64,000 nucleotides of DNA from Clostridia bacterium (GTDB taxonomy: Bacteria > Bacillota > Clostridia > Oscillospirales > CAG-272). Shown piece after piece: positions 5,182 through 40,351 of this stretch (position 1 is its first letter; every line of letters starts with the position of its first letter). The DNA lies in assembly GCA_017482495.1 (NCBI GenBank), contig JAFUMU010000083.1, positions 3,342 to 67,341 on the forward strand, given 5' to 3'. A program made the translations under genes and the position numbers. A model generated the notes under the pieces. It was given only the letters and a program-made list of their open reading frames with translations. It was not told the DNA's origin and did not search any database.

Positions 5182-6429
5182 ATGAACATTTCAAATGAAA
5201 CAAGGTCGCTCTGCCTGCAGGCGGAGGAGGCGCTAAGCGAGCAGTTTGCTCATATAGATAAGGTTTCCCGCATATGCACGGAACGGGTCATGGACATTTT
5301 CCGCGAAGAAAGAGTTAACGAATCCATGTTTGCCGCAACGACGGGCTACGGCTACGGCGACCGCGGACGCGATGCCATCGACCGAATTGCCGCAAGAATT
5401 TTCGGCGCAGAAGCAGGATTTATGCGCCCTTCAATACTCAGCGGTACCCACGCCATCTCCATCGGTCTTTTCGGACTTCTCCGTCCCGGCGACATAATGC
5501 TTTCCGTTACAAGCGCGCCCTACGACACACTTCGCGGAGTTATCGGTATCGGCGACAGCTGCGGACAGGGCAGTCTTGACGAATTCGGCGTTGAATACCG
5601 TCAGATAGAGTTCAACAGCGAGGGCTACATAGACATTCCTGCTCTTGATGCCGCTATTACAGAATGCGGCGACAGGCTGAAGGTGGTATTTATGCAGCGC
5701 TCCAAGGGTTATCTTGACAGACGCACGCTTTCAGTTGCTGAAATTGCAGAGGTTGCCAAGCTGGTTCACTCCAAGTGCAATGCTTACGTGGTTCTTGACA
5801 ACTGCTACGGTGAATTTACGGAAACCACCGAGCCCGCCGCCCACGGAGTTGACCTTATGATAGGCTCACTCATAAAAAATCCCGGAGGCGGTATGGCTGA
5901 TATCGGCGGATATCTTGTAGGCTCCCCCAAGGCTGTAGAGCTTGCAAGCTACAGACTCTCCTGCCCCGGAGTCGGGCTTGAAGTCGGCGCATCTCTCGGT
6001 CAGAACAGAAATCTTCTGAGAGGTCTGTTCTTTGCCCCCCACACCACAGCTCAGGCATTGAAAACAGCCCATCTTGCCGCATATATCTTTGACAGTCTGG
6101 GCTACGAGGTCTCTCCCGGACCCTTCGAGAAGAGAAGCGACATTATTCAGACAGTCAAGCTGGGAAGTCCCGAGGGACTTGTTGATTTCTGCCGCGGCAT
6201 TCAGTCTGCGTCTCCCGTTGACGCATATGTTTCTCCCGAAGCCTGGGATATGCCCGGATATGACGATCCTGTTGTTATGGCGGCAGGTGCATTTATCGGA
6301 GGCTCCTCCATCGAGCTTTCCGCCGACGGCCCCATCCGTCCTCCCTACATTGCATTTATGCAGGGCGGTCTTACCTACGAAAGCGCACGTCTCGGCATTA
6401 TGGCAGCAGCTGACAGGCTTAAGAAATGA
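5182..6429 (+). CDS. YnbB-like PLP-dependent enzyme (aluminium-resistance / methionine gamma-lyase family)
   Basis: Track ORF 5125-6429 trimmed to the internal ATG preceded by AAGGA. Contains TTGYGYGDRGRDAIDRIAARIFGAEAGFMRPSILSGTHAIS, typical of the family. Confidence 0.75.
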   Translation: MNISNETRSLCLQAEEALSEQFAHIDKVSRICTERVMDIFREERVNESMFAATTGYGYGDRGRDAIDRIAARIFGAEAGFMRPSILSGTHAISIGLFGLLRPGDIMLSVTSAPYDTLRGVIGIGDSCGQGSLDEFGVEYRQIEFNSEGYIDIPALDAAITECGDRLKVVFMQRSKGYLDRRTLSVAEIAEVAKLVHSKCNAYVVLDNCYGEFTETTEPAAHGVDLMIGSLIKNPGGGMADIGGYLVGSPKAVELASYRLSCPGVGLEVGASLGQNRNLLRGLFFAPHTTAQALKTAHLAAYIFDSLGYEVSPGPFEKRSDIIQTVKLGSPEGLVDFCRGIQSASPVDAYVSPEAWDMPGYDDPVVMAAGAFIGGSSIELSADGPIRPPYIAFMQGGLTYESARLGIMAAADRLKK

Positions 6430-6575: not shown

Positions 6576-6604
6576 TTGACCAAATCAATAACATATGGTA
6601 TAAT
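6576..6604 (+). promoter_or_regulatory. Sigma-A type promoter
   Basis: TTGACC (6576-6581), 17 bp spacer, TATAAT (6599-6604). Confidence 0.7.
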
Positions 6605-6610
6605 ATTACG

Positions 6611-6682
6611 ACTGAACAGGCAGCGGCAAGTCCGCGAAGCCGGGTCTTACAAGACAACAGATACGCATCTGTGGGACAGTAC
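6611..6682 (+). promoter_or_regulatory. NiCo (czcD-type) riboswitch aptamer
   Basis: ACUGAACAGGCA..GAAGCCGGGUC..GACAACAGAU..AUCUGUGGGACAGU matches my recollection of the conserved NiCo junction nucleotides. P1 is ACUG/CAGU and three hairpins lie inside. It sits upstream of a CDF transporter. Confidence 0.7.
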
Positions 6683-6726: not shown

Positions 6727-7842
6727 TTGAAAAAAGAGATAAACAGATCGAAAATAGGGCAGATATCCGGAATAATCGGAATAATATGCAACTGCGTTCT
6801 TTCTGCAACCAAAATATTCGCAGGAGCCGTTTCAGGTTCCCTGTCAGTTACAGCAGACGGATTAAACAATCTCAGCGATGCCGCAAGCTCCGTCGTCGCC
6901 TTTCTCGGTTACAGGCTGTCCGAAAAGCCCGCAGACAAGAAGCATCCCTTCGGACACGCAAGAATAGAGTATCTTGCCAATCTGACGGTTGCAACCCTTA
7001 TGCTTTTTATGGGATTTGAGCTTACGAAATCATCCGTTATAAAAATGATCTCCACCGAAAAAGCCTCATTTTCCGTCCTCACCTTCATCATCCTTGCCAT
7101 ATCCATAGCAGTAAAGATATTTATGATGCTGTTCAACAGGCATATGGGCAAAAAGATATCTTCAGCTACACTTATGGCGGTTGCCGCAGACAGCAGAAAC
7201 GATGCCATAGCAACAACCGTTGTTGCCCTTTCAGCCGCAACCGAATATTTTTTCAACATCAAAGTCGACGGTATAGCAGGACTTCTTCTGGCATTATTCA
7301 TACTTTACAGCGGAATAATCACGGCCAAGGGCGCCGTCTCCACTCTTTTGGGCGAGGGCGGGTCGCCGAAGCTGAAAAACGAAATAACAGCTCTTATCCT
7401 CTCAAACAATGATATCATAGGATGCCACGACCTTATAGTACACGACTACGGGCCCGAAAAAATATACGCCAGCATCCACGTTGAGATGAACAAAAACGCC
7501 ACTCCTATGTACAGCCACAGAATAATCGATCTTCTTGAGAGGAAATGTCTTAAGCGCCTCGGTGTGCATCTGGTCATCCACCACGATCCCGTTGCAACCG
7601 ACGATCCGGGGGAAAATCAGATCCGACAAGCAATAGAAGATTTTTTATCGGAAAGAGACCCTCGGCTAAAATTCCACGATCTTCGCATAGTTGAGCGAAA
7701 TACCGCAACTCTTCTCTATTTCGACATAGAGATCCCCGAAGAAATCTTCGGTGAGCGGCACAGCATTGCTCTTGAGCTTGAATCACATCTGAACGAAAGC
7801 CTCAGCCGCCGCTTCATACTGAATATTACCTACGACATTTAA
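6727..7842 (+). CDS. Cation diffusion facilitator (CDF) family metal exporter
   Basis: TTG start 6 nt after GGGAGG. Contains SLSVTADGLNNLSDAASS and KKHPFGHARIEYL motifs, six TM helices and a cytoplasmic C-terminal domain. Confidence 0.9.
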   Translation: MKKEINRSKIGQISGIIGIICNCVLSATKIFAGAVSGSLSVTADGLNNLSDAASSVVAFLGYRLSEKPADKKHPFGHARIEYLANLTVATLMLFMGFELTKSSVIKMISTEKASFSVLTFIILAISIAVKIFMMLFNRHMGKKISSATLMAVAADSRNDAIATTVVALSAATEYFFNIKVDGIAGLLLALFILYSGIITAKGAVSTLLGEGGSPKLKNEITALILSNNDIIGCHDLIVHDYGPEKIYASIHVEMNKNATPMYSHRIIDLLERKCLKRLGVHLVIHHDPVATDDPGENQIRQAIEDFLSERDPRLKFHDLRIVERNTATLLYFDIEIPEEIFGERHSIALELESHLNESLSRRFILNITYDI

Positions 7843-13099: not shown

Positions 13100-13135
13100 T
13101 TGTTTTAAACTCACATTTGTGATATAATATTATAT
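13100..13135 (+). promoter_or_regulatory. Promoter with overlapping 14-bp AT palindrome (possible operator)
   Basis: TTGTTT, 17 bp spacer, TATAAT with an upstream TGTG. The perfect palindrome ATATAATATTATAT (13122-13135) covers the -10 box. Confidence 0.45.
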
Positions 13136-13161: not shown

Positions 13162-14304
13162 ATGACTAAGATAGATATTTTCTCAGGCTTTCTCGGAGCA
13201 GGCAAGACCACTCTTATAAAGAAGCTTATTTCCGAAGCATACAAGGGCGAAAAGCTTGTTCTTATTGAAAACGAATTTGGTGAGATCGGCGTTGACGCAG
13301 GATTTCTTACCGACGCAGGTATCAACATCACAGAAATGAACTCAGGATGTATATGCTGCTCTCTTGTGGGAGACTTCAGTCAGGCACTTAAAAAGGTCAT
13401 AGCAGAATATGCTCCCGACAGGATCCTCATCGAACCCTCCGGAGTCGGCAAGCTTTCCGACGTTATGGCGGCTGTTAAGGGTAGCGCAGAGGGTGCGGAG
13501 CTTTCTGCGGCGGTAACAGTTGTTGACGCTAAAAAATGCAGAATGTATATGAAGAATTTCGGTGAATTTTTCAACAATCAGGTTGAAAATGCAACCACCA
13601 TCGTCCTCAGCCATACCAAGGGACTTTCAGAGGATAAGCTGAACCGTGCAATAGAAATGATCAGAGAGCACAATGCAAAGGCAAGCCTTGTTACAACTGA
13701 GTGGGACGAAATAAGCGGCGCTGATATTCTATCTGTTATTGACGGCACAGATTCCCTTGAAGCAGAGCTTCACAAGCTGGAGGAGGAGGCTGTTTGTCCC
13801 GAATGCGGTCACCATCACGGCCCTCATCATCACCACGATGAAAGCTGCGACTGTCACGAGCATCATCACGACCATCACCATCACGATGAGGGCTGCGACT
13901 GTCATGAGCATCATCACGACCATCACCACCACGATGAGGGCTGCGACTGTCATGAGCATGAACATCATCACCATCATCATGACGAAGAATGCTCCTGCGG
14001 ATGCGGCGGTCACGGTCACCATCATCACCATGCAGACGAGGTGTTCTCAAGCTGGGGAATGGACGGCACACGCAAGTATACAAAAGAAGAGATCGAAAAA
14101 GCTCTTCACGAGATAGAAAACGAAGAAAAATACGGTATGGTTCTCAGAGCTAAGGGGATAGTTCCCTCCGACGGCTGCTTTATCCACTTCGACTATACCC
14201 CCGGCGAAGCAGATATAAGAGAGGGCAGTGCAGTTGCCGCAGGCAGACTTTGCGTTATCGGCTCAAATATCAAGGAAGATGCTCTGAGAGAGCTCTTTGC
14301 ATAA
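13162..14304 (+). CDS. COG0523 (CobW/HypB/UreG, G3E) GTPase metallochaperone with His/Cys-rich insert
   Basis: Walker A GFLGAGKTT, CxCC motif GCICCS and an EPSGVG switch. Carries a long HHHH/CDCHEHHH insert before the CobW C-terminal domain. Confidence 0.9.
   Translation: MTKIDIFSGFLGAGKTTLIKKLISEAYKGEKLVLIENEFGEIGVDAGFLTDAGINITEMNSGCICCSLVGDFSQALKKVIAEYAPDRILIEPSGVGKLSDVMAAVKGSAEGAELSAAVTVVDAKKCRMYMKNFGEFFNNQVENATTIVLSHTKGLSEDKLNRAIEMIREHNAKASLVTTEWDEISGADILSVIDGTDSLEAELHKLEEEAVCPECGHHHGPHHHHDESCDCHEHHHDHHHHDEGCDCHEHHHDHHHHDEGCDCHEHEHHHHHHDEECSCGCGGHGHHHHHADEVFSSWGMDGTRKYTKEEIEKALHEIENEEKYGMVLRAKGIVPSDGCFIHFDYTPGEADIREGSAVAAGRLCVIGSNIKEDALRELFA
13837..13980 (+). repeat. In-frame 48-bp tandem repeat (3 units) coding DE[SG]CDCHEH[HE]H[DH]HHHH
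   Basis: Three consecutive near-identical 48-nt units are visible in the DNA and the protein. A fourth, degenerate unit (DEECSCGCGGHGHHHHH) follows. Confidence 0.85.
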
Positions 14305-14316
14305 AGGAGAATATCA

Positions 14317-15237
14317 ATGCTTGATACACCTGTATACCTTGTTACCGGCTTTCTGGAAGCAGGTAAAACAAAGTTTATAAATGACACCATGGGTGACCCC
14401 AAATTCACCGACGCAGACAAGGTCCTTGTGATTGCTTGCGAAGAAGGCGAAGAGGAATTCGATGACTTTGCCGTTGAATATATTGATGACATAAGCGAGA
14501 TCTCCCCCGAAAATATGATCCGTCTTCAGAAGCGTCACGATGCAACAAAGATCATTGTTGAATATAACGGTATGTGGCAGATATCCGACCTTTACAGCAG
14601 AGCGCCGGAGCATTGGATAATCGGACAGAATATCCTCTTCTTCAATGCCGAGACATTCGATGGCTACAATAAGAACATGAGAAGCCTTGTGGTTGATAAG
14701 ATACAGAATGCAGATCTCATCATCTTCAATAGAGTTGACGATGCGGACTGCATGGAGCTTCACAAGGCCGTAAGAGGACTTTCACGAAGCGCCGATATCA
14801 TATATGAAAAATCCACAGGCGAAACTGCCTATGATGATATCGAAGATCCCCTGCCCTTTGACAAGGAAGCGGACGTTATCACCATTGAGGACAGAGACTA
14901 CGCCCTTTTCTACCGCGATCTCAGCGAGGATATGGCATCCTACGACGGAAAAACAGTCTCCTTCAAAGCTGTTGTTGCAAAGGACAGATCTCTTGGATGC
15001 GGTACGATGTTCGTAGGACGTCATATTATGGTCTGCTGTGCAGACGATATCCAGTACAGCCCGCTTGTTTGCAAATGGGGCAGAAGCGATGACTATGAAA
15101 GCTATGACTGGGTAAACGTTACGGCAAAGATCAAGATAGCACATCATAAGGCATATCAGACAGCAGGTCCTGTGCTGACAGCCATCAGCGTTACCAAAGC
15201 ATATCAGCCCACAGATCCCGTGGCAACATTTTATTGA
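14317..15237 (+). CDS. Divergent G3E-like GTPase domain fused to a DUF1980/TIGR03943-like C-terminal domain
   Basis: Good RBS (AAGGAGA). The N-terminus LVTGFLEAGKTKF fits GxxxxGKT, but I see no CxCC motif. The C-terminus FVGRHIMVCCADDIQYSPL...WVNVTAKI resembles the CCxAD motif region as I recall it. Confidence 0.6.
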   Translation: MLDTPVYLVTGFLEAGKTKFINDTMGDPKFTDADKVLVIACEEGEEEFDDFAVEYIDDISEISPENMIRLQKRHDATKIIVEYNGMWQISDLYSRAPEHWIIGQNILFFNAETFDGYNKNMRSLVVDKIQNADLIIFNRVDDADCMELHKAVRGLSRSADIIYEKSTGETAYDDIEDPLPFDKEADVITIEDRDYALFYRDLSEDMASYDGKTVSFKAVVAKDRSLGCGTMFVGRHIMVCCADDIQYSPLVCKWGRSDDYESYDWVNVTAKIKIAHHKAYQTAGPVLTAISVTKAYQPTDPVATFY

Positions 15238-15246
15238 TAAGCATAT

Positions 15247-15274
15247 AAAAACGGACGCCGCGGCGTCCGTTTTT
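15247..15274. terminator. Bidirectional intrinsic terminator
   Basis: AAAA-ACGGACGCCG/CGGCGTCCGT-TTTT perfect palindrome between convergent genes. Confidence 0.8.
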
Positions 15275-18689: not shown

Positions 18690-19193
18690 TCACATATCGA
18701 TCACCAAGGTGTGGCCGTCGGAGAAGCTAAGCTCTATTTTAACGGGAGTACCGTCGGAATCGGTAATGACCTTGCCGGAGAGATCGGGGGATATGACGGT
18801 AGCCTCGGTGAGTCCGTTATCAGCGGCAACGATATCGGAGATCATATCCTCTGAAAGGGAGAATGCCGACTCGATCTTTTTAACGATGCCTGCGGTTTTT
18901 TCACCGAAGGGTATCTCAACATCGCCCATTTTCCCCTTGTATGTACCGCCACTTTTTTCAAGAATATAACCACCGATTATGGAAGGGGAGATGTATTCAA
19001 CGGAAACTGTTTCACGCACACCGTTTTCGTCGGGTGCACTGAGGGTAATTTTAGCTTCATTTTCATTTCCGTCGTACACGAGGACGCAATCGAAGCAAAA
19101 ATCACTGTTCTGATAGTCAAAAAAATTGGTATGTGTAACATCACATGACACCATAAATATAACACACAAAAGGCACAGCACGATCTTACGCAT
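18690..19193 (-). CDS. Lipoprotein, unknown function
   Basis: Trimmed to the ATG after GGGAGGAAAT. MRKIVLCLLCVIFMVSC gives a signal peptide plus lipobox. Confidence 0.6.
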   Translation of the reverse strand: MRKIVLCLLCVIFMVSCDVTHTNFFDYQNSDFCFDCVLVYDGNENEAKITLSAPDENGVRETVSVEYISPSIIGGYILEKSGGTYKGKMGDVEIPFGEKTAGIVKKIESAFSLSEDMISDIVAADNGLTEATVISPDLSGKVITDSDGTPVKIELSFSDGHTLVIDM

Positions 19194-19252
19194 ATTTCCT
19201 CCCAAAAAAGCAAAGCGCACATATTTCTAAATGAAATATATGCGCCGTTTTT

Positions 19253-20251
19253 TTATTTATTACCGATAAGGCTAATAAGTGATGAGGGTGCAAGGATGTC
19301 CTCGCCGTAGTAAAGGTCGTACATAAGCATATCTCTGTTGTCCTCGCTGTATTCAATTTCCTTGGAGTAAAGCTTGGCGGCGGAAACGTAGGCCTCAAGA
19401 GTCGTGTCCTCTGCCATAACGGATATCATCAGACATCCTGCCGCGGCAAAGCACACCTTTGAGAGAAGGTCTTCGTCAAAGAGTGCCTTCATAAAATACC
19501 GCCACAAAAAATATACGAATATTCTTGAAAGATATGTGTCGTTTGTTTCCGGTGACTTGCCGTTAAGCGAATTAAGCTTTTCTGTCCATACTTGGTCGAT
19601 GGGCTCAAAACGTGAAAACAATGAGACAAATTCCGAAAAGTCCGCTTCCTGCATCTCGTTATCATAAAACTTGGCTTGCGGAACGCTTCCTACCAGACCT
19701 ATATCCATACAGTCCTGCAGGTCCTCTGCGTAGTTGAGTGATATAGCGATTTTTTCGGCAAAGCTAAGATTTCCTTCAAATATTTCAAAAAGCTTTTTTC
19801 GTGCGTTCTGAAGAAATGCAAGAAGCTTTTCGTTCTCTTCTTCGCCTTCTTCATCTGTTTCCACTTCATAATACTGACCGGAACCCTCAGTGAGTATAAG
19901 CTTTGCCGCCGCCTCACAGCTGAGTCCCACGCCGCCTTCCTTTATATCTCCGTACCAACCGTAGTATCTTGGATGATTGTCGCAGATATAACAAAGATGC
20001 TCACTTCCGAGATTTATGATTATGTCGCAGAGATTGCGCTCGTTGAGAAACGGACATCTCTCTCCGCACAGCTTGAAGCTGCTGTTTTCTATATTATCCC
20101 GAAGCCTTTTACCGAAATCTCCTTTAACCGTATCATAAAATGATTTGGTCGCAGGATCAATATCTATTTCCCAGCCGACACAGCAGTTGTCCGTACAACG
20201 GTCTGCTATGCAGGAGAATTTTTTATAGTACAGTGGATAACGGAGCTTCAT
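19253..20251 (-). CDS. Cys-cluster protein, FliB-like (flagellin lysine-N-methylase family / YkgJ-type)
   Basis: N-terminus FSCIADRCTDNCCVGWEIDID plus CGERCPFLNERNLC. Family assignment is from memory of the motif. No flagellar genes are nearby. Confidence 0.5.
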   Translation of the reverse strand: MKLRYPLYYKKFSCIADRCTDNCCVGWEIDIDPATKSFYDTVKGDFGKRLRDNIENSSFKLCGERCPFLNERNLCDIIINLGSEHLCYICDNHPRYYGWYGDIKEGGVGLSCEAAAKLILTEGSGQYYEVETDEEGEEENEKLLAFLQNARKKLFEIFEGNLSFAEKIAISLNYAEDLQDCMDIGLVGSVPQAKFYDNEMQEADFSEFVSLFSRFEPIDQVWTEKLNSLNGKSPETNDTYLSRIFVYFLWRYFMKALFDEDLLSKVCFAAAGCLMISVMAEDTTLEAYVSAAKLYSKEIEYSEDNRDMLMYDLYYGEDILAPSSLISLIGNK

Positions 20252-36078: not shown

Positions 36079-36097
36079 ACCATTGTAGCTACAAAAT

Positions 36098-36190
36098 TCA
36101 ATACAGGGGTGCTGTTACAGGACGGCTGAGACGGAAATTTTCCGAACCCTTTAACCTGATACGGGTAATTCCGGCGTAGGGAGCATTGTT
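36098..36190 (+). promoter_or_regulatory. TPP (THI-box) riboswitch
   Basis: CAGGGGUGC...GGCUGAGA...ACCCUUUAACCUGAUACGGGUAAUUCCGGCGUAGGGAGC matches the TPP aptamer consensus. Confidence 0.9.
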
Positions 36191-36223
36191 TTAAGGCACT
36201 ATTATATTATTTTGCTTTTTACT

Positions 36224-40025: not shown

Positions 40026-40227
40026 AGCGAAGACTGTATATCATAAAACGTGAATCTGCGGCAAGCCGCAGTGAAATTTGGGCTATCGCTCAAGTGAAGT
40101 ATTGCACCTGCGATGCAATATGAAGTTAATGTTCCAACTATCGTGCCGAAGGCATATATAATCGCTCGCAGAACGATATCATATCGAAGATATATCACCC
40201 GTTCCGCAGGGAACGGGTATCATTGAA

Positions 40228-40260: not shown

Positions 40261-40351
40261 TGGCGGAGAAGGAGAGATTCGAACTCTCGAACCCTTTTAC
40301 AGGTTACACGATTTCCAATCGTGCGCGCTCGACCAGCTACGCGACTTCTCC
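40261..40351 (-). tRNA. tRNA-Ser (anticodon GGA), CCA encoded
   Basis: Minus strand reads GGAGAAG..CACGA-UUGGAAA-UCGUG..long variable arm..GAGAG-UUCGAAU-CUCUC-CUUCUCC-G-CCA. The cloverleaf was folded by hand. Confidence 0.9.

Follow-up and report, generated by a model that had tools for sequence, protein, structure and literature searches.

COG0523 proteins are metallochaperone GTPases in which the RxKG motif of the C-terminal domain (CTD) is an arginine finger that activates the protein's own G domain (PMC13001444, bioRxiv, 2026 preprint). According to a 2024 review, no metalloenzyme client is known for any bacterial COG0523 protein regulated by Zur (PMC11672702). Here we describe a two-gene operon in a stretch of 64,000 nucleotides (nt) from a Clostridia bacterium (GTDB lineage Oscillospirales; CAG-272; assembly GCA_017482495.1, contig JAFUMU010000083.1, positions 3,342 to 67,341, forward strand); this whole stretch is referred to as the window. 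Gene 1 encodes a predicted COG0523 protein. Gene 2 encodes a soluble protein in which a G3E-type nucleoside triphosphatase (NTPase) domain without the CxCC metal motif, called G' below, is fused to an OB-fold domain of the DUF1980_C family. The pair looks like a membrane-free derivative of, or a sister to, a four-component metal system that includes a permease, and its link to that permease/DUF1980 system is a new result.

The described COG0523 proteins include YjiA, YeiR, ZigA, MigC, ZagA/YciC, CobW, Nha3 and the eukaryotic ZNG1. They are ubiquitous, and in pathogens they are important under zinc starvation. G' resembles them in its G3E fold, its P-loop (GFLxxGKT), the E-x-G-E of switch I, the Glu-x-x-Gly of Walker B and a cobW score above the Pfam cut-off. 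The fusion differs from them in having neither GCxCC nor CobW_C with its RxKG, nor the Lys and Asp of NKxD, and an OB fold stands in place of the CTD. The product of the upstream gene 1 is itself a full member of the family. None of the described COG0523 proteins has an obligate paralogous operon partner.

The second family to be compared is that of the TIGR03943/DUF1980 proteins (B. subtilis YcgQ, Streptococcus ScfB, SMU.747), which are paired with ArsP_1 permeases (YcgR, ScfA). We know of no mechanism for the canonical members. The scfAB genes form a fitness and virulence locus of group A Streptococcus (PMC5584981). The C-terminal domain of the gene 2 protein is like theirs (PF21537) and shares R-x4-[CH]-C-x2-D, W-V, a Pro and an aromatic C-terminus with the proteins of C. 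butyricum and Priestia megaterium, but PF09323 and an adjacent permease are absent and the score stays below the NCBIfam cut-off.

A third comparison is with HypB-HypA and UreG-UreE. Each of these consists of a G3E NTPase, in many cases rich in His, and a small metal-binding protein dedicated to it, and metal exchange between the two is under nucleotide control. The window pair is likened to them by analogy and by the fold match of G' to HypB and UreG. It differs in that the partner has its own paralogous NTPase domain and an OB domain unrelated to HypA or UreE. Furthermore, no hydrogenase or urease genes are linked to the pair, either among its neighbours in the window or in the clustering of open reading frames (ORFs) from 90 related loci.

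Architecture of the two proteins

Gene 2 starts with ATG and is read in a single intact frame. The features of both genes on which the following rests are (aa, amino acid residues):

14317..15237 (+), gene 2, soluble G'-DUF1980_C fusion of 306 aa (Pfam, homologues, AlphaFold2)
14317..14826 (+), G' domain, aa 1-170, G3E/COG0523-type P-loop NTPase fold without CxCC (Foldseek, conservation, alignment with the partner)
14347-14370 (+), P-loop of G', GFLEAGKT, aa 11-18; Walker A GxxxxGK[ST] present
within gene 2 (+), switch I of G', CEEGEEE, aa 41-47, aligned to ENEFGE of the partner
within gene 2 (+), Walker B of G', VEYNGM, aa 81-86; Walker B Glu present
14725-14739 (+), G4 remnant of G', FNRVD, aa 137-141, an incomplete NKxD-type motif
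14839..14862 (+), inter-domain motif IEDPLPFD, aa 175-182, invariant or nearly so in the fusion family (alignments)
14875..15234 (+), DUF1980_C domain, aa ~187-306, N-terminal helix and five-stranded OB barrel (Pfam, AlphaFold2)
15019-15048 (+), signature G-R235-H-x-M-x-C240-C241-x-x-D244, end of strand 2 and the following turn
13162..14304 (+), gene 1, predicted complete COG0523 metallochaperone-type GTPase of 380 aa (Pfam cobW and CobW_C)
13825..13959 (+), His/Cys-rich tandem repeat within gene 1, units such as HHHHDEGCDCHEHHHD, between G domain and CobW_C

Searches with hidden Markov models place both domains of the gene 2 protein above their Pfam cut-offs. The cobW model (PF02492) matches in two stretches with E 2.1e-7 and 31.2 bits (cut-off 20.7), and DUF1980_C (PF21537) matches aa 179-301 with E 3.3e-20 and 72.6 bits (cut-off 25.9). 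The full-length TIGR03943 model reaches 71.9 bits against an NCBIfam cut-off of 88.8 and aligns only over its C-terminal half (positions 87-220 of 221), while the NCBIfam COG0523 equivalogs, at 21-30 bits, are all far below their cut-offs of 180-600. PF09323, the N-terminal transmembrane domain of canonical DUF1980 proteins, is unmatched in the gene 2 protein, and no transmembrane segment is present (maximum Kyte-Doolittle hydropathy over 19 residues, 0.98). A preliminary description of this DNA had already called the protein soluble and its C-terminal domain DUF1980-like, and both statements are borne out.

An AlphaFold2 model of the whole protein, built on an alignment of 97 sequences (mean pLDDT 92.1, pTM 0.70), predicts a G3E NTPase followed by an OB fold. 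Among solved structures in the PDB, Foldseek matches G' with probability 1.0 to HypB (2hf8), YjiA (4ixm), UreG (4hi0) and MeaB-like proteins; by sequence, the only relative of gene 2 with a solved structure that was found is YjiA, at E 0.73. Thirty-eight columns are invariant across the 97 homologues, which are 49-91% identical. In G' these include G11, G16 and K17 of the P-loop (T18 is at least 90% conserved), E42 and G44 of switch I, and E82, N84 and G85 of Walker B. The G domains of the two proteins are colinear in a MAFFT alignment, and a 7-residue gap in G' falls exactly on SGCICCS of the partner; the gene 2 protein contains no C-x-C-C anywhere. Nor does it match CobW_C (PF07683), the domain that bears RxKG. 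In G4, N138 and R139 are invariant, Arg replacing the Lys of NKxD, and the Asp is not conserved (variants FNRVD, FNRLT, FNRMA, FNRFN), so that [NT]KxD is absent.

The preliminary description had regarded this domain as a degenerate G3E-like GTPase. That holds for CxCC, CobW_C and the NKxD Asp, which are missing, but not for the P-loop, switch I and Walker B. Judged by its residues, G' is not simply degenerate: the presumed nucleotide-binding positions have been kept, while CxCC, CobW_C and the G4 Asp are gone.

The C-terminal domain modelled alone is predicted with a pLDDT of 91.3 and a pTM of 0.83, with OB strands at aa 213-221, 230-238, 246-253, 265-275 and 284-294. There is no solved structure of a DUF1980_C domain. 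Foldseek returns, with probability 0.95-1.0, the anticodon-binding (N-)domain of AsnRS/AspRS, RPA, Stn1/Ten1, SSB and MCM-N; as OB matches these are generic (E ~1e-3, TM-scores 0.35-0.52). Invariant over the 97 homologues are R235, M238, C240, C241, D244, W265, Y280, G284 and P285, and the C-terminal ATFY is also conserved. The cysteine pair follows strand 2 directly and lies in the turn before strand 3. A pattern R-x4-[CH]-C-x2-D is common to gene 2 and to the proteins of C. butyricum (RYIMVCCAAD) and P. megaterium (RFGIIHCVAD), with R235, C241 and D244 aligned. By contrast, only the fusion family has IEDPLPFD; canonical DUF1980 proteins lack it.

Gene 2 belongs neither to COG0523, because GCxCC and CobW_C/RxKG were both looked for and both are absent, nor to TIGR03943, because a transmembrane domain and a neighbouring permease are missing and the NCBIfam cut-off is not reached. 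What it encodes is an NTPase of G3E fold joined to a genuine DUF1980_C domain. Databases name its homologues only 'GTPase', 'GTP-binding protein' or 'YcgQ', and no curated NCBIfam model covers the fusion.

The gene 1 protein has what was looked for in a COG0523 protein: a cobW domain (E 2.7e-37), GCxCC, and CobW_C (24.5 bits, cut-off 22) with RxKG. Its motifs are the P-loop GFLGAGKT, switch I ENEFGE, the metal motif GCICCS and Walker B IEPSG, and its CobW_C domain carries LRAKG, the R-x-K-G arginine-finger motif. TRF finds the His/Cys repeat with a period of 48 nt, 2.8 copies and 93% matches. This repeat is likely to be a metal store or buffer.

Conservation of the pair and its permease-linked relatives

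Ninety related loci were collected from a scan of GTDB species genomes and from exact-protein look-ups, giving 91 with the window locus. The species-genome scan yielded at least 598 confirmed genome matches, all labelled Clostridia; carriers are found in Oscillospiraceae, Acutalibacteraceae, Ruminococcus, Christensenellaceae and some Lachnospiraceae. In the protein database at least 7,981 clusters match gene 2 at E<=1e-3, and an exhaustive search of representatives at 50% identity gave 235 matches at E<=1e-30. The best 120 homologues are 306-320 aa long, 49-91% identical, and have the same single-ORF architecture. The fusion is one continuous ORF in 91/91 loci, which answers the question raised in the preliminary description of whether two ORFs had been joined in gene calling. 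The proposed coupling to the COG0523 gene was likewise confirmed: in 83/83 testable loci such a gene is the immediate upstream neighbour, in the same orientation, and the remaining 8 loci are cut by a contig end. The gap between the two genes is mostly -60 to +30 nt in the related loci.

The flanks beyond the pair are not conserved. A relative whose protein is 89% identical to that of the window has wholly different neighbours, and it is as a unit of two genes that the pair moves from genome to genome. Clustering of the ORFs of the 90 loci, meant to reveal a further conserved gene or a client, showed conservation of the pair only, every other family being present in at most 9 loci. The next families are a PotA-like ABC ATPase (9 loci), an aminopeptidase-like protein (7, read from sequence) and a ThiI-like protein (5), all of which probably reflect lineage synteny. 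No Rosetta-stone fusion of gene 1 to gene 2 was found among the best 150 representatives; longer matches look chimeric or frameshifted.

Some details of position recur. The pair lies directly 3' of the aminopeptidase-like gene (ending ...NGNWAF*) in 7 loci, among them L029, L040, L051, L067 and L090, and directly 3' of the ThiI-like gene (ending ...RAKF*) in L018, L022, L027, L060 and L069, in each case with no obvious intervening promoter (L numbers are our designations of loci). In one lineage two tiny called ORFs of 38 and 33 aa come right after gene 2 (L004:2595-2812, L006:2524-2741).

The partners encoded in the related loci have kept the putative metal sites of gene 1. CICC is present in 83/83, all of which also have a His-rich insert (12-75 His residues each), and R-x-K-G is kept in 80/81. 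Their G4 motif is non-canonical, S-[HR]-T-x (SHTG, SHTD, SRTD and SHTK across 81 partners); in the window it is LSHT, aa 149-152, nt 13606-13617. Three loci encode partners of 419, 365 and 446 aa (L004:376-1635, L005:223-1320 and L006:224-1564) beside an identical gene 2 protein (P0011). These partners differ only in the copies (3, 1 and 4) of a 27-aa HHHHDHGEDCTCGCHEHEHEHEH unit, which is either a strain-level copy-number polymorphism or the result of assembly collapse.

As the preliminary description stated, TIGR03943 proteins are normally membrane-anchored and stand beside a permease in zinc-responsive loci, and the canonical loci examined here agree with this. An ArsP_1 (PF03773) permease gene adjoins the DUF1980 gene in 4/4 of them, and the plasmid-borne canonical TIGR03943 proteins have three N-terminal hydrophobic segments with a maximum hydropathy of 2.0-2.9. 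On a P. megaterium plasmid, the genes for a metal ABC binding protein and for ZinT enclose two permease/TIGR03943 pairs. Zur-box-like sites precede the first of these operons (L093:840-854, TCGTAATCATTACTA) and zinT (5726-5740, TCGTAATGTTTACGT); they differ by 1-2 mismatches from the Bacillus Zur box consensus, TCGTAATNATTACGA. The second P. megaterium TIGR03943 protein has, between hydrophobic segments, a DHDHDHNGDCSCGHSHE loop that resembles the His/Cys repeats of COG0523 proteins.

The module is not without relatives, which qualifies the preliminary description: related Clostridium loci carry a COG0523 gene, G', an ArsP_1 permease and a membrane DUF1980 protein, partly beside ZnuA. In C. 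butyricum (plasmid pNPD4_2, L092) the 537-aa 'permease' consists of a CxCC-less cobW domain (aa 7-179, E 8e-14) and ArsP_1 (aa 239-530), and is followed by TIGR03943. L098 has a string of genes for ZnuA, COG0523 (366 aa), a free-standing G' (192 aa), ArsP_1 and DUF1980. In L099, znuABC is divergent upstream, and then come COG0523 and a G'-ArsP_1 fusion; here, as in C. butyricum, G' is attached to the N-terminus of the permease. The DUF1980 gene of L098 (6706-7546) is called as two ORFs in different frames, with the break in an A-rich, low-complexity S/T/N linker. The most likely cause is a frameshift from sequencing, rather than an OB protein that stands alone in nature.

The Clostridium loci and the window family are alike in having COG0523 proteins of the same subfamily, a CxCC-less G' and an operonic DUF1980_C domain. 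The COG0523 proteins are 48-49% identical to the G domain of the window partner and have the same subfamily motifs. Clostridium G' and the window N-domain have in common the deletion of the CxCC segment, GKTxFI, E-x-NGM, Y-x-x-NM and the G4 Asn. The order COG0523 to G' is the same in both types of system, with gaps of 3 and 27 nt in Clostridium and 12 nt in the window. They differ in that Clostridium G' is free or fused to a permease, DUF1980 is membrane-anchored, and ZnuA or ZnuABC and a palindrome, TGCAAATCATTTGCA, accompany them; the window family is without these.

This perfect 7-1-7 palindrome lies just 5' of the ribosome-binding site (RBS) of the C. butyricum G'-permease gene (L092:2861-2875). 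A copy with two mismatches, TGCAAATCAAATGCA, is found within AAATGCA direct repeats upstream of znuA (L098:2835-2849), and AAATGCA/TGCATTT words also occur in the znuA-COG0523 intergenic region of L099. Palindromes of the TGCAAATCATTTGCA type are a candidate operator for a metal regulator. They are absent from the promoters of the soluble pair.

We take the Clostridium arrangement of COG0523, G', ArsP_1 and membrane DUF1980 as the putative parent of the window pair. On the simplest reading, COG0523 and G' are an old pair that worked with the permease and DUF1980, and in the window family G' captured the OB domain while the permease and the membrane anchor were lost.

Possible mechanism and its alternatives

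In general terms, we infer from the protein families and the genomic context that the locus encodes a cytoplasmic two-protein module for metal handling, a model whose chances of being right and of being wrong seem to us evenly balanced. In such a module G' would bind nucleotide and pair with the COG0523 G domain in the manner of G3E/SIMIBI NTPases. Pairing would place the thiolate site of the OB domain beside the CICC motif and the His-rich store of COG0523, and a thiophilic divalent metal might then go from one protein to the other under the control of NTP binding and hydrolysis. The fusion protein would be dedicated to its COG0523 as acceptor, donor or adaptor. For the metal, zinc is favoured by the ZnuA, ZinT and Zur-box contexts; nickel or cobalt are also possible. 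The more specific version, in which the G'-OB protein is the metal acceptor or adaptor and the pair forms a cytoplasmic relay that arose by fusion of G' to the DUF1980 OB domain with the membrane parts discarded, is put forward tentatively, as possible but not probable.

The preliminary description had likewise proposed a two-protein metal-handling module, and had called its mechanism undescribed. The latter agrees with the literature, in which no paper on this architecture was found and DUF1980, YcgQ and TIGR03943 are barely mentioned; the former comes from families and context, and no metal-responsive regulation was found for the pair.

The regulatory results are among several points that weigh against the model. 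In 76 unique upstream regions, neither enumeration of half-sites and palindromes nor k-mer enrichment gave a shared operator, and only promoter and RBS words emerged. The Bacillus-type Zur motif and a Clostridium candidate, TGCAAATNATTTGCA, occur there at chance level (1/76 and 2/76), the Zur-box scan having used a Bacillus-type consensus that may not be that of the carrier taxa. Rfam detects no riboswitch next to the pair, either in the window or in the 20 related loci searched. The metal, too, is ambiguous: the ZnuA family also binds manganese, His/Cys repeats suit nickel, cobalt or zinc, and cbiMNQO adjoins the gene string of L098. As to descent, the window N-domain is only 22-30% identical (31-67 bits) to Clostridium G', no more than either is to COG0523, so that CxCC could have been lost twice independently. 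In topology, the positive-inside rule would put the OB domain of the C. butyricum L092 and the L098 DUF1980 proteins outside the cell; in L098 the loop between the second and third transmembrane segments has 8 Lys and is followed by an S/T/N-rich linker. If this is right, G' and OB would not have to touch each other in the parent system, and their fusion would be a new cytoplasmic combination. Lastly, G4 is atypical in both paralogues, so that the label 'GTPase' for this whole subfamily, and with it GTP specificity, is presumptive.

One alternative is that a permease whose gene lies elsewhere in the genome (ArsP_1 or another) has the G'-OB protein as a cytoplasmic subunit that can detach from it, and that the pair gates, energises or unloads a transporter. 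The covalent fusion of G' to the ArsP_1 N-terminus in C. butyricum and L099 and the constant adjacency of DUF1980 and ArsP_1-type genes in the four canonical loci speak for it. Against it, the fusion has no transmembrane segment, and the operon has its own promoter and terminator and travels as a two-gene unit. Moreover, a jackhmmer search with ArsP_1 permeases was negative both for the 64-kb window and for the ~1 Mb of flanks of the 90 related loci, which extends the earlier statement that no permease gene is nearby. We consider this alternative unlikely.

It is also improbable, in our view, that G'-OB is a regulatory pseudo-enzyme (an inhibitor, a nucleotide-state sensor or a storage clamp), or that its OB domain has some ligand other than metal, for example a small molecule that reacts with thiols, a client peptide or a nucleic acid. 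The missing CxCC and CobW_C GAP domain and the unconserved G4 Asp would fit a pseudo-enzyme, but the invariance of the catalytic-type K17, E42 and E82 and the conservation of T18 are unexpected for a dead domain. A nucleic acid ligand is suggested by the closest solved folds of the C-terminal domain, which are nucleic-acid-binding OB domains, and by a weak Pfam tRNA_anti-like match of the C. butyricum TIGR03943 protein. Yet the fold matches are of the generic kind (E ~1e-3, TM-scores 0.4-0.5), and in zinc-uptake contexts the same domain is anchored in the membrane next to a permease, a setting that fits nucleic-acid binding poorly. ArsP-family permeases are also involved in the transport of organoarsenicals, and this may be counted in favour of a ligand other than metal.

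That gene 2 is a gene-calling artefact or a decaying pseudogene is scarcely conceivable, given an uninterrupted ORF, at least 7,981 clusters with 235 representatives, 38 invariant columns and a pLDDT of 92.

If the specific relay version is true, DUF1980_C would be a new class of Cys-Cys-Asp metal-binding OB domain, and with the fusion a bacterial COG0523 protein would for the first time have a partner protein that is obligate and genetically defined. A co-encoded partner with a paralogous NTPase domain and a cysteine site makes the pair suitable for reconstitution, with direct metal transfer, formation of a heterodimer and gating by nucleotide as possible readouts. The pair also gives a first functional lead for DUF1980/TIGR03943 proteins and their ArsP_1 permeases (YcgQR, ScfAB). 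The module occurs in at least ~600 species-level genomes of gut and rumen Clostridia and therefore probably matters for the metal economy of the microbiome.

Operon signals and other features of the window

The locus is a self-contained two-gene operon consisting of promoter, COG0523 gene, G'-OB fusion gene and terminator. Its signals are:

13100..13128 (+), likely operon promoter, -35 TTGTTT at 13100-13105, 17-nt spacer, extended -10 TGaTATAAT at 13120-13128 (read from sequence)
13122-13135 (+), perfect 14-bp palindrome ATATAATATTATAT, overlapping the -10 of the operon promoter
14305..14309 (+), RBS of gene 2, AGGAG, within the 12-nt intergenic gap (read from sequence)
15247..15274 (+), intrinsic terminator hairpin, 12-bp stem and T run, 10 nt 3' of the gene 2 stop

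A scan for consensus promoters missed the one at 13100..13128, because its -35 agrees with the consensus at just 3/6 positions. Boxes of the TGnTATAAT type recur as -10 elements upstream of orthologous operons, and TATAATA is found in 33/76 upstream regions against 9 expected. Gene 1 ends with TAA at 14302-14304, and the 12 nt up to the start of gene 2 are AGGAGAATATCA, with AGGAG 7 nt before the ATG, as the preliminary description had it (a 12-nt gap and an RBS of its own). This arrangement suggests that translation of gene 2 may be coupled to that of gene 1. The terminator ends the operon, and the following gene is convergent.

Palindromes of any sequence are present in 48/76 upstream regions, compared with 40+-4 in shuffles. 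AT-rich palindromes that differ in sequence occupy a similar position in the orthologous loci L067 (ACGTTATAAATAACGT), L076 (TATAAATATCATTTATA) and L090 (AATAATCAAAGATTATT) and have no common motif. L048 and L051 share a conserved GC-rich hairpin, GGTCAAGGG(A/G)AA(A/T)TTCCCTTGGCTT, in the 5' leader, ~45 nt before the partner gene begins; it may serve as operator or attenuator.

The neighbours of the operon on the other strand are pyrBI, pyrF, pyrD, pyrK and pyrC; downstream are a PduL-type phosphotransacylase (PTAC) gene, pgk and tpiA. Two further ORFs, both on the - strand, gave no Pfam match at E<=1e-5: 19253-20251, encoding a Cys-rich protein of 332 aa, and 18690-19220, encoding 176 aa with a lipoprotein-like N-terminus. 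A NiCo riboswitch at 6603-6681 (+; 52.9 bits) lies directly 5' of a gene for a CDF-family exporter at 6727-7842 (+; Cation_efflux and ZT_dimer). Such an arrangement is standard for metal efflux; it is unlinked to the operon, from which it is separated by ~5.3 kb on the upstream side. The window further contains a TPP riboswitch at 36095-36199 (+), a Gut-1 sRNA match at 40151-40225 (-) whose 51.1 bits barely exceed the gathering score of 50, and a tRNA at 40264-40351 (-).

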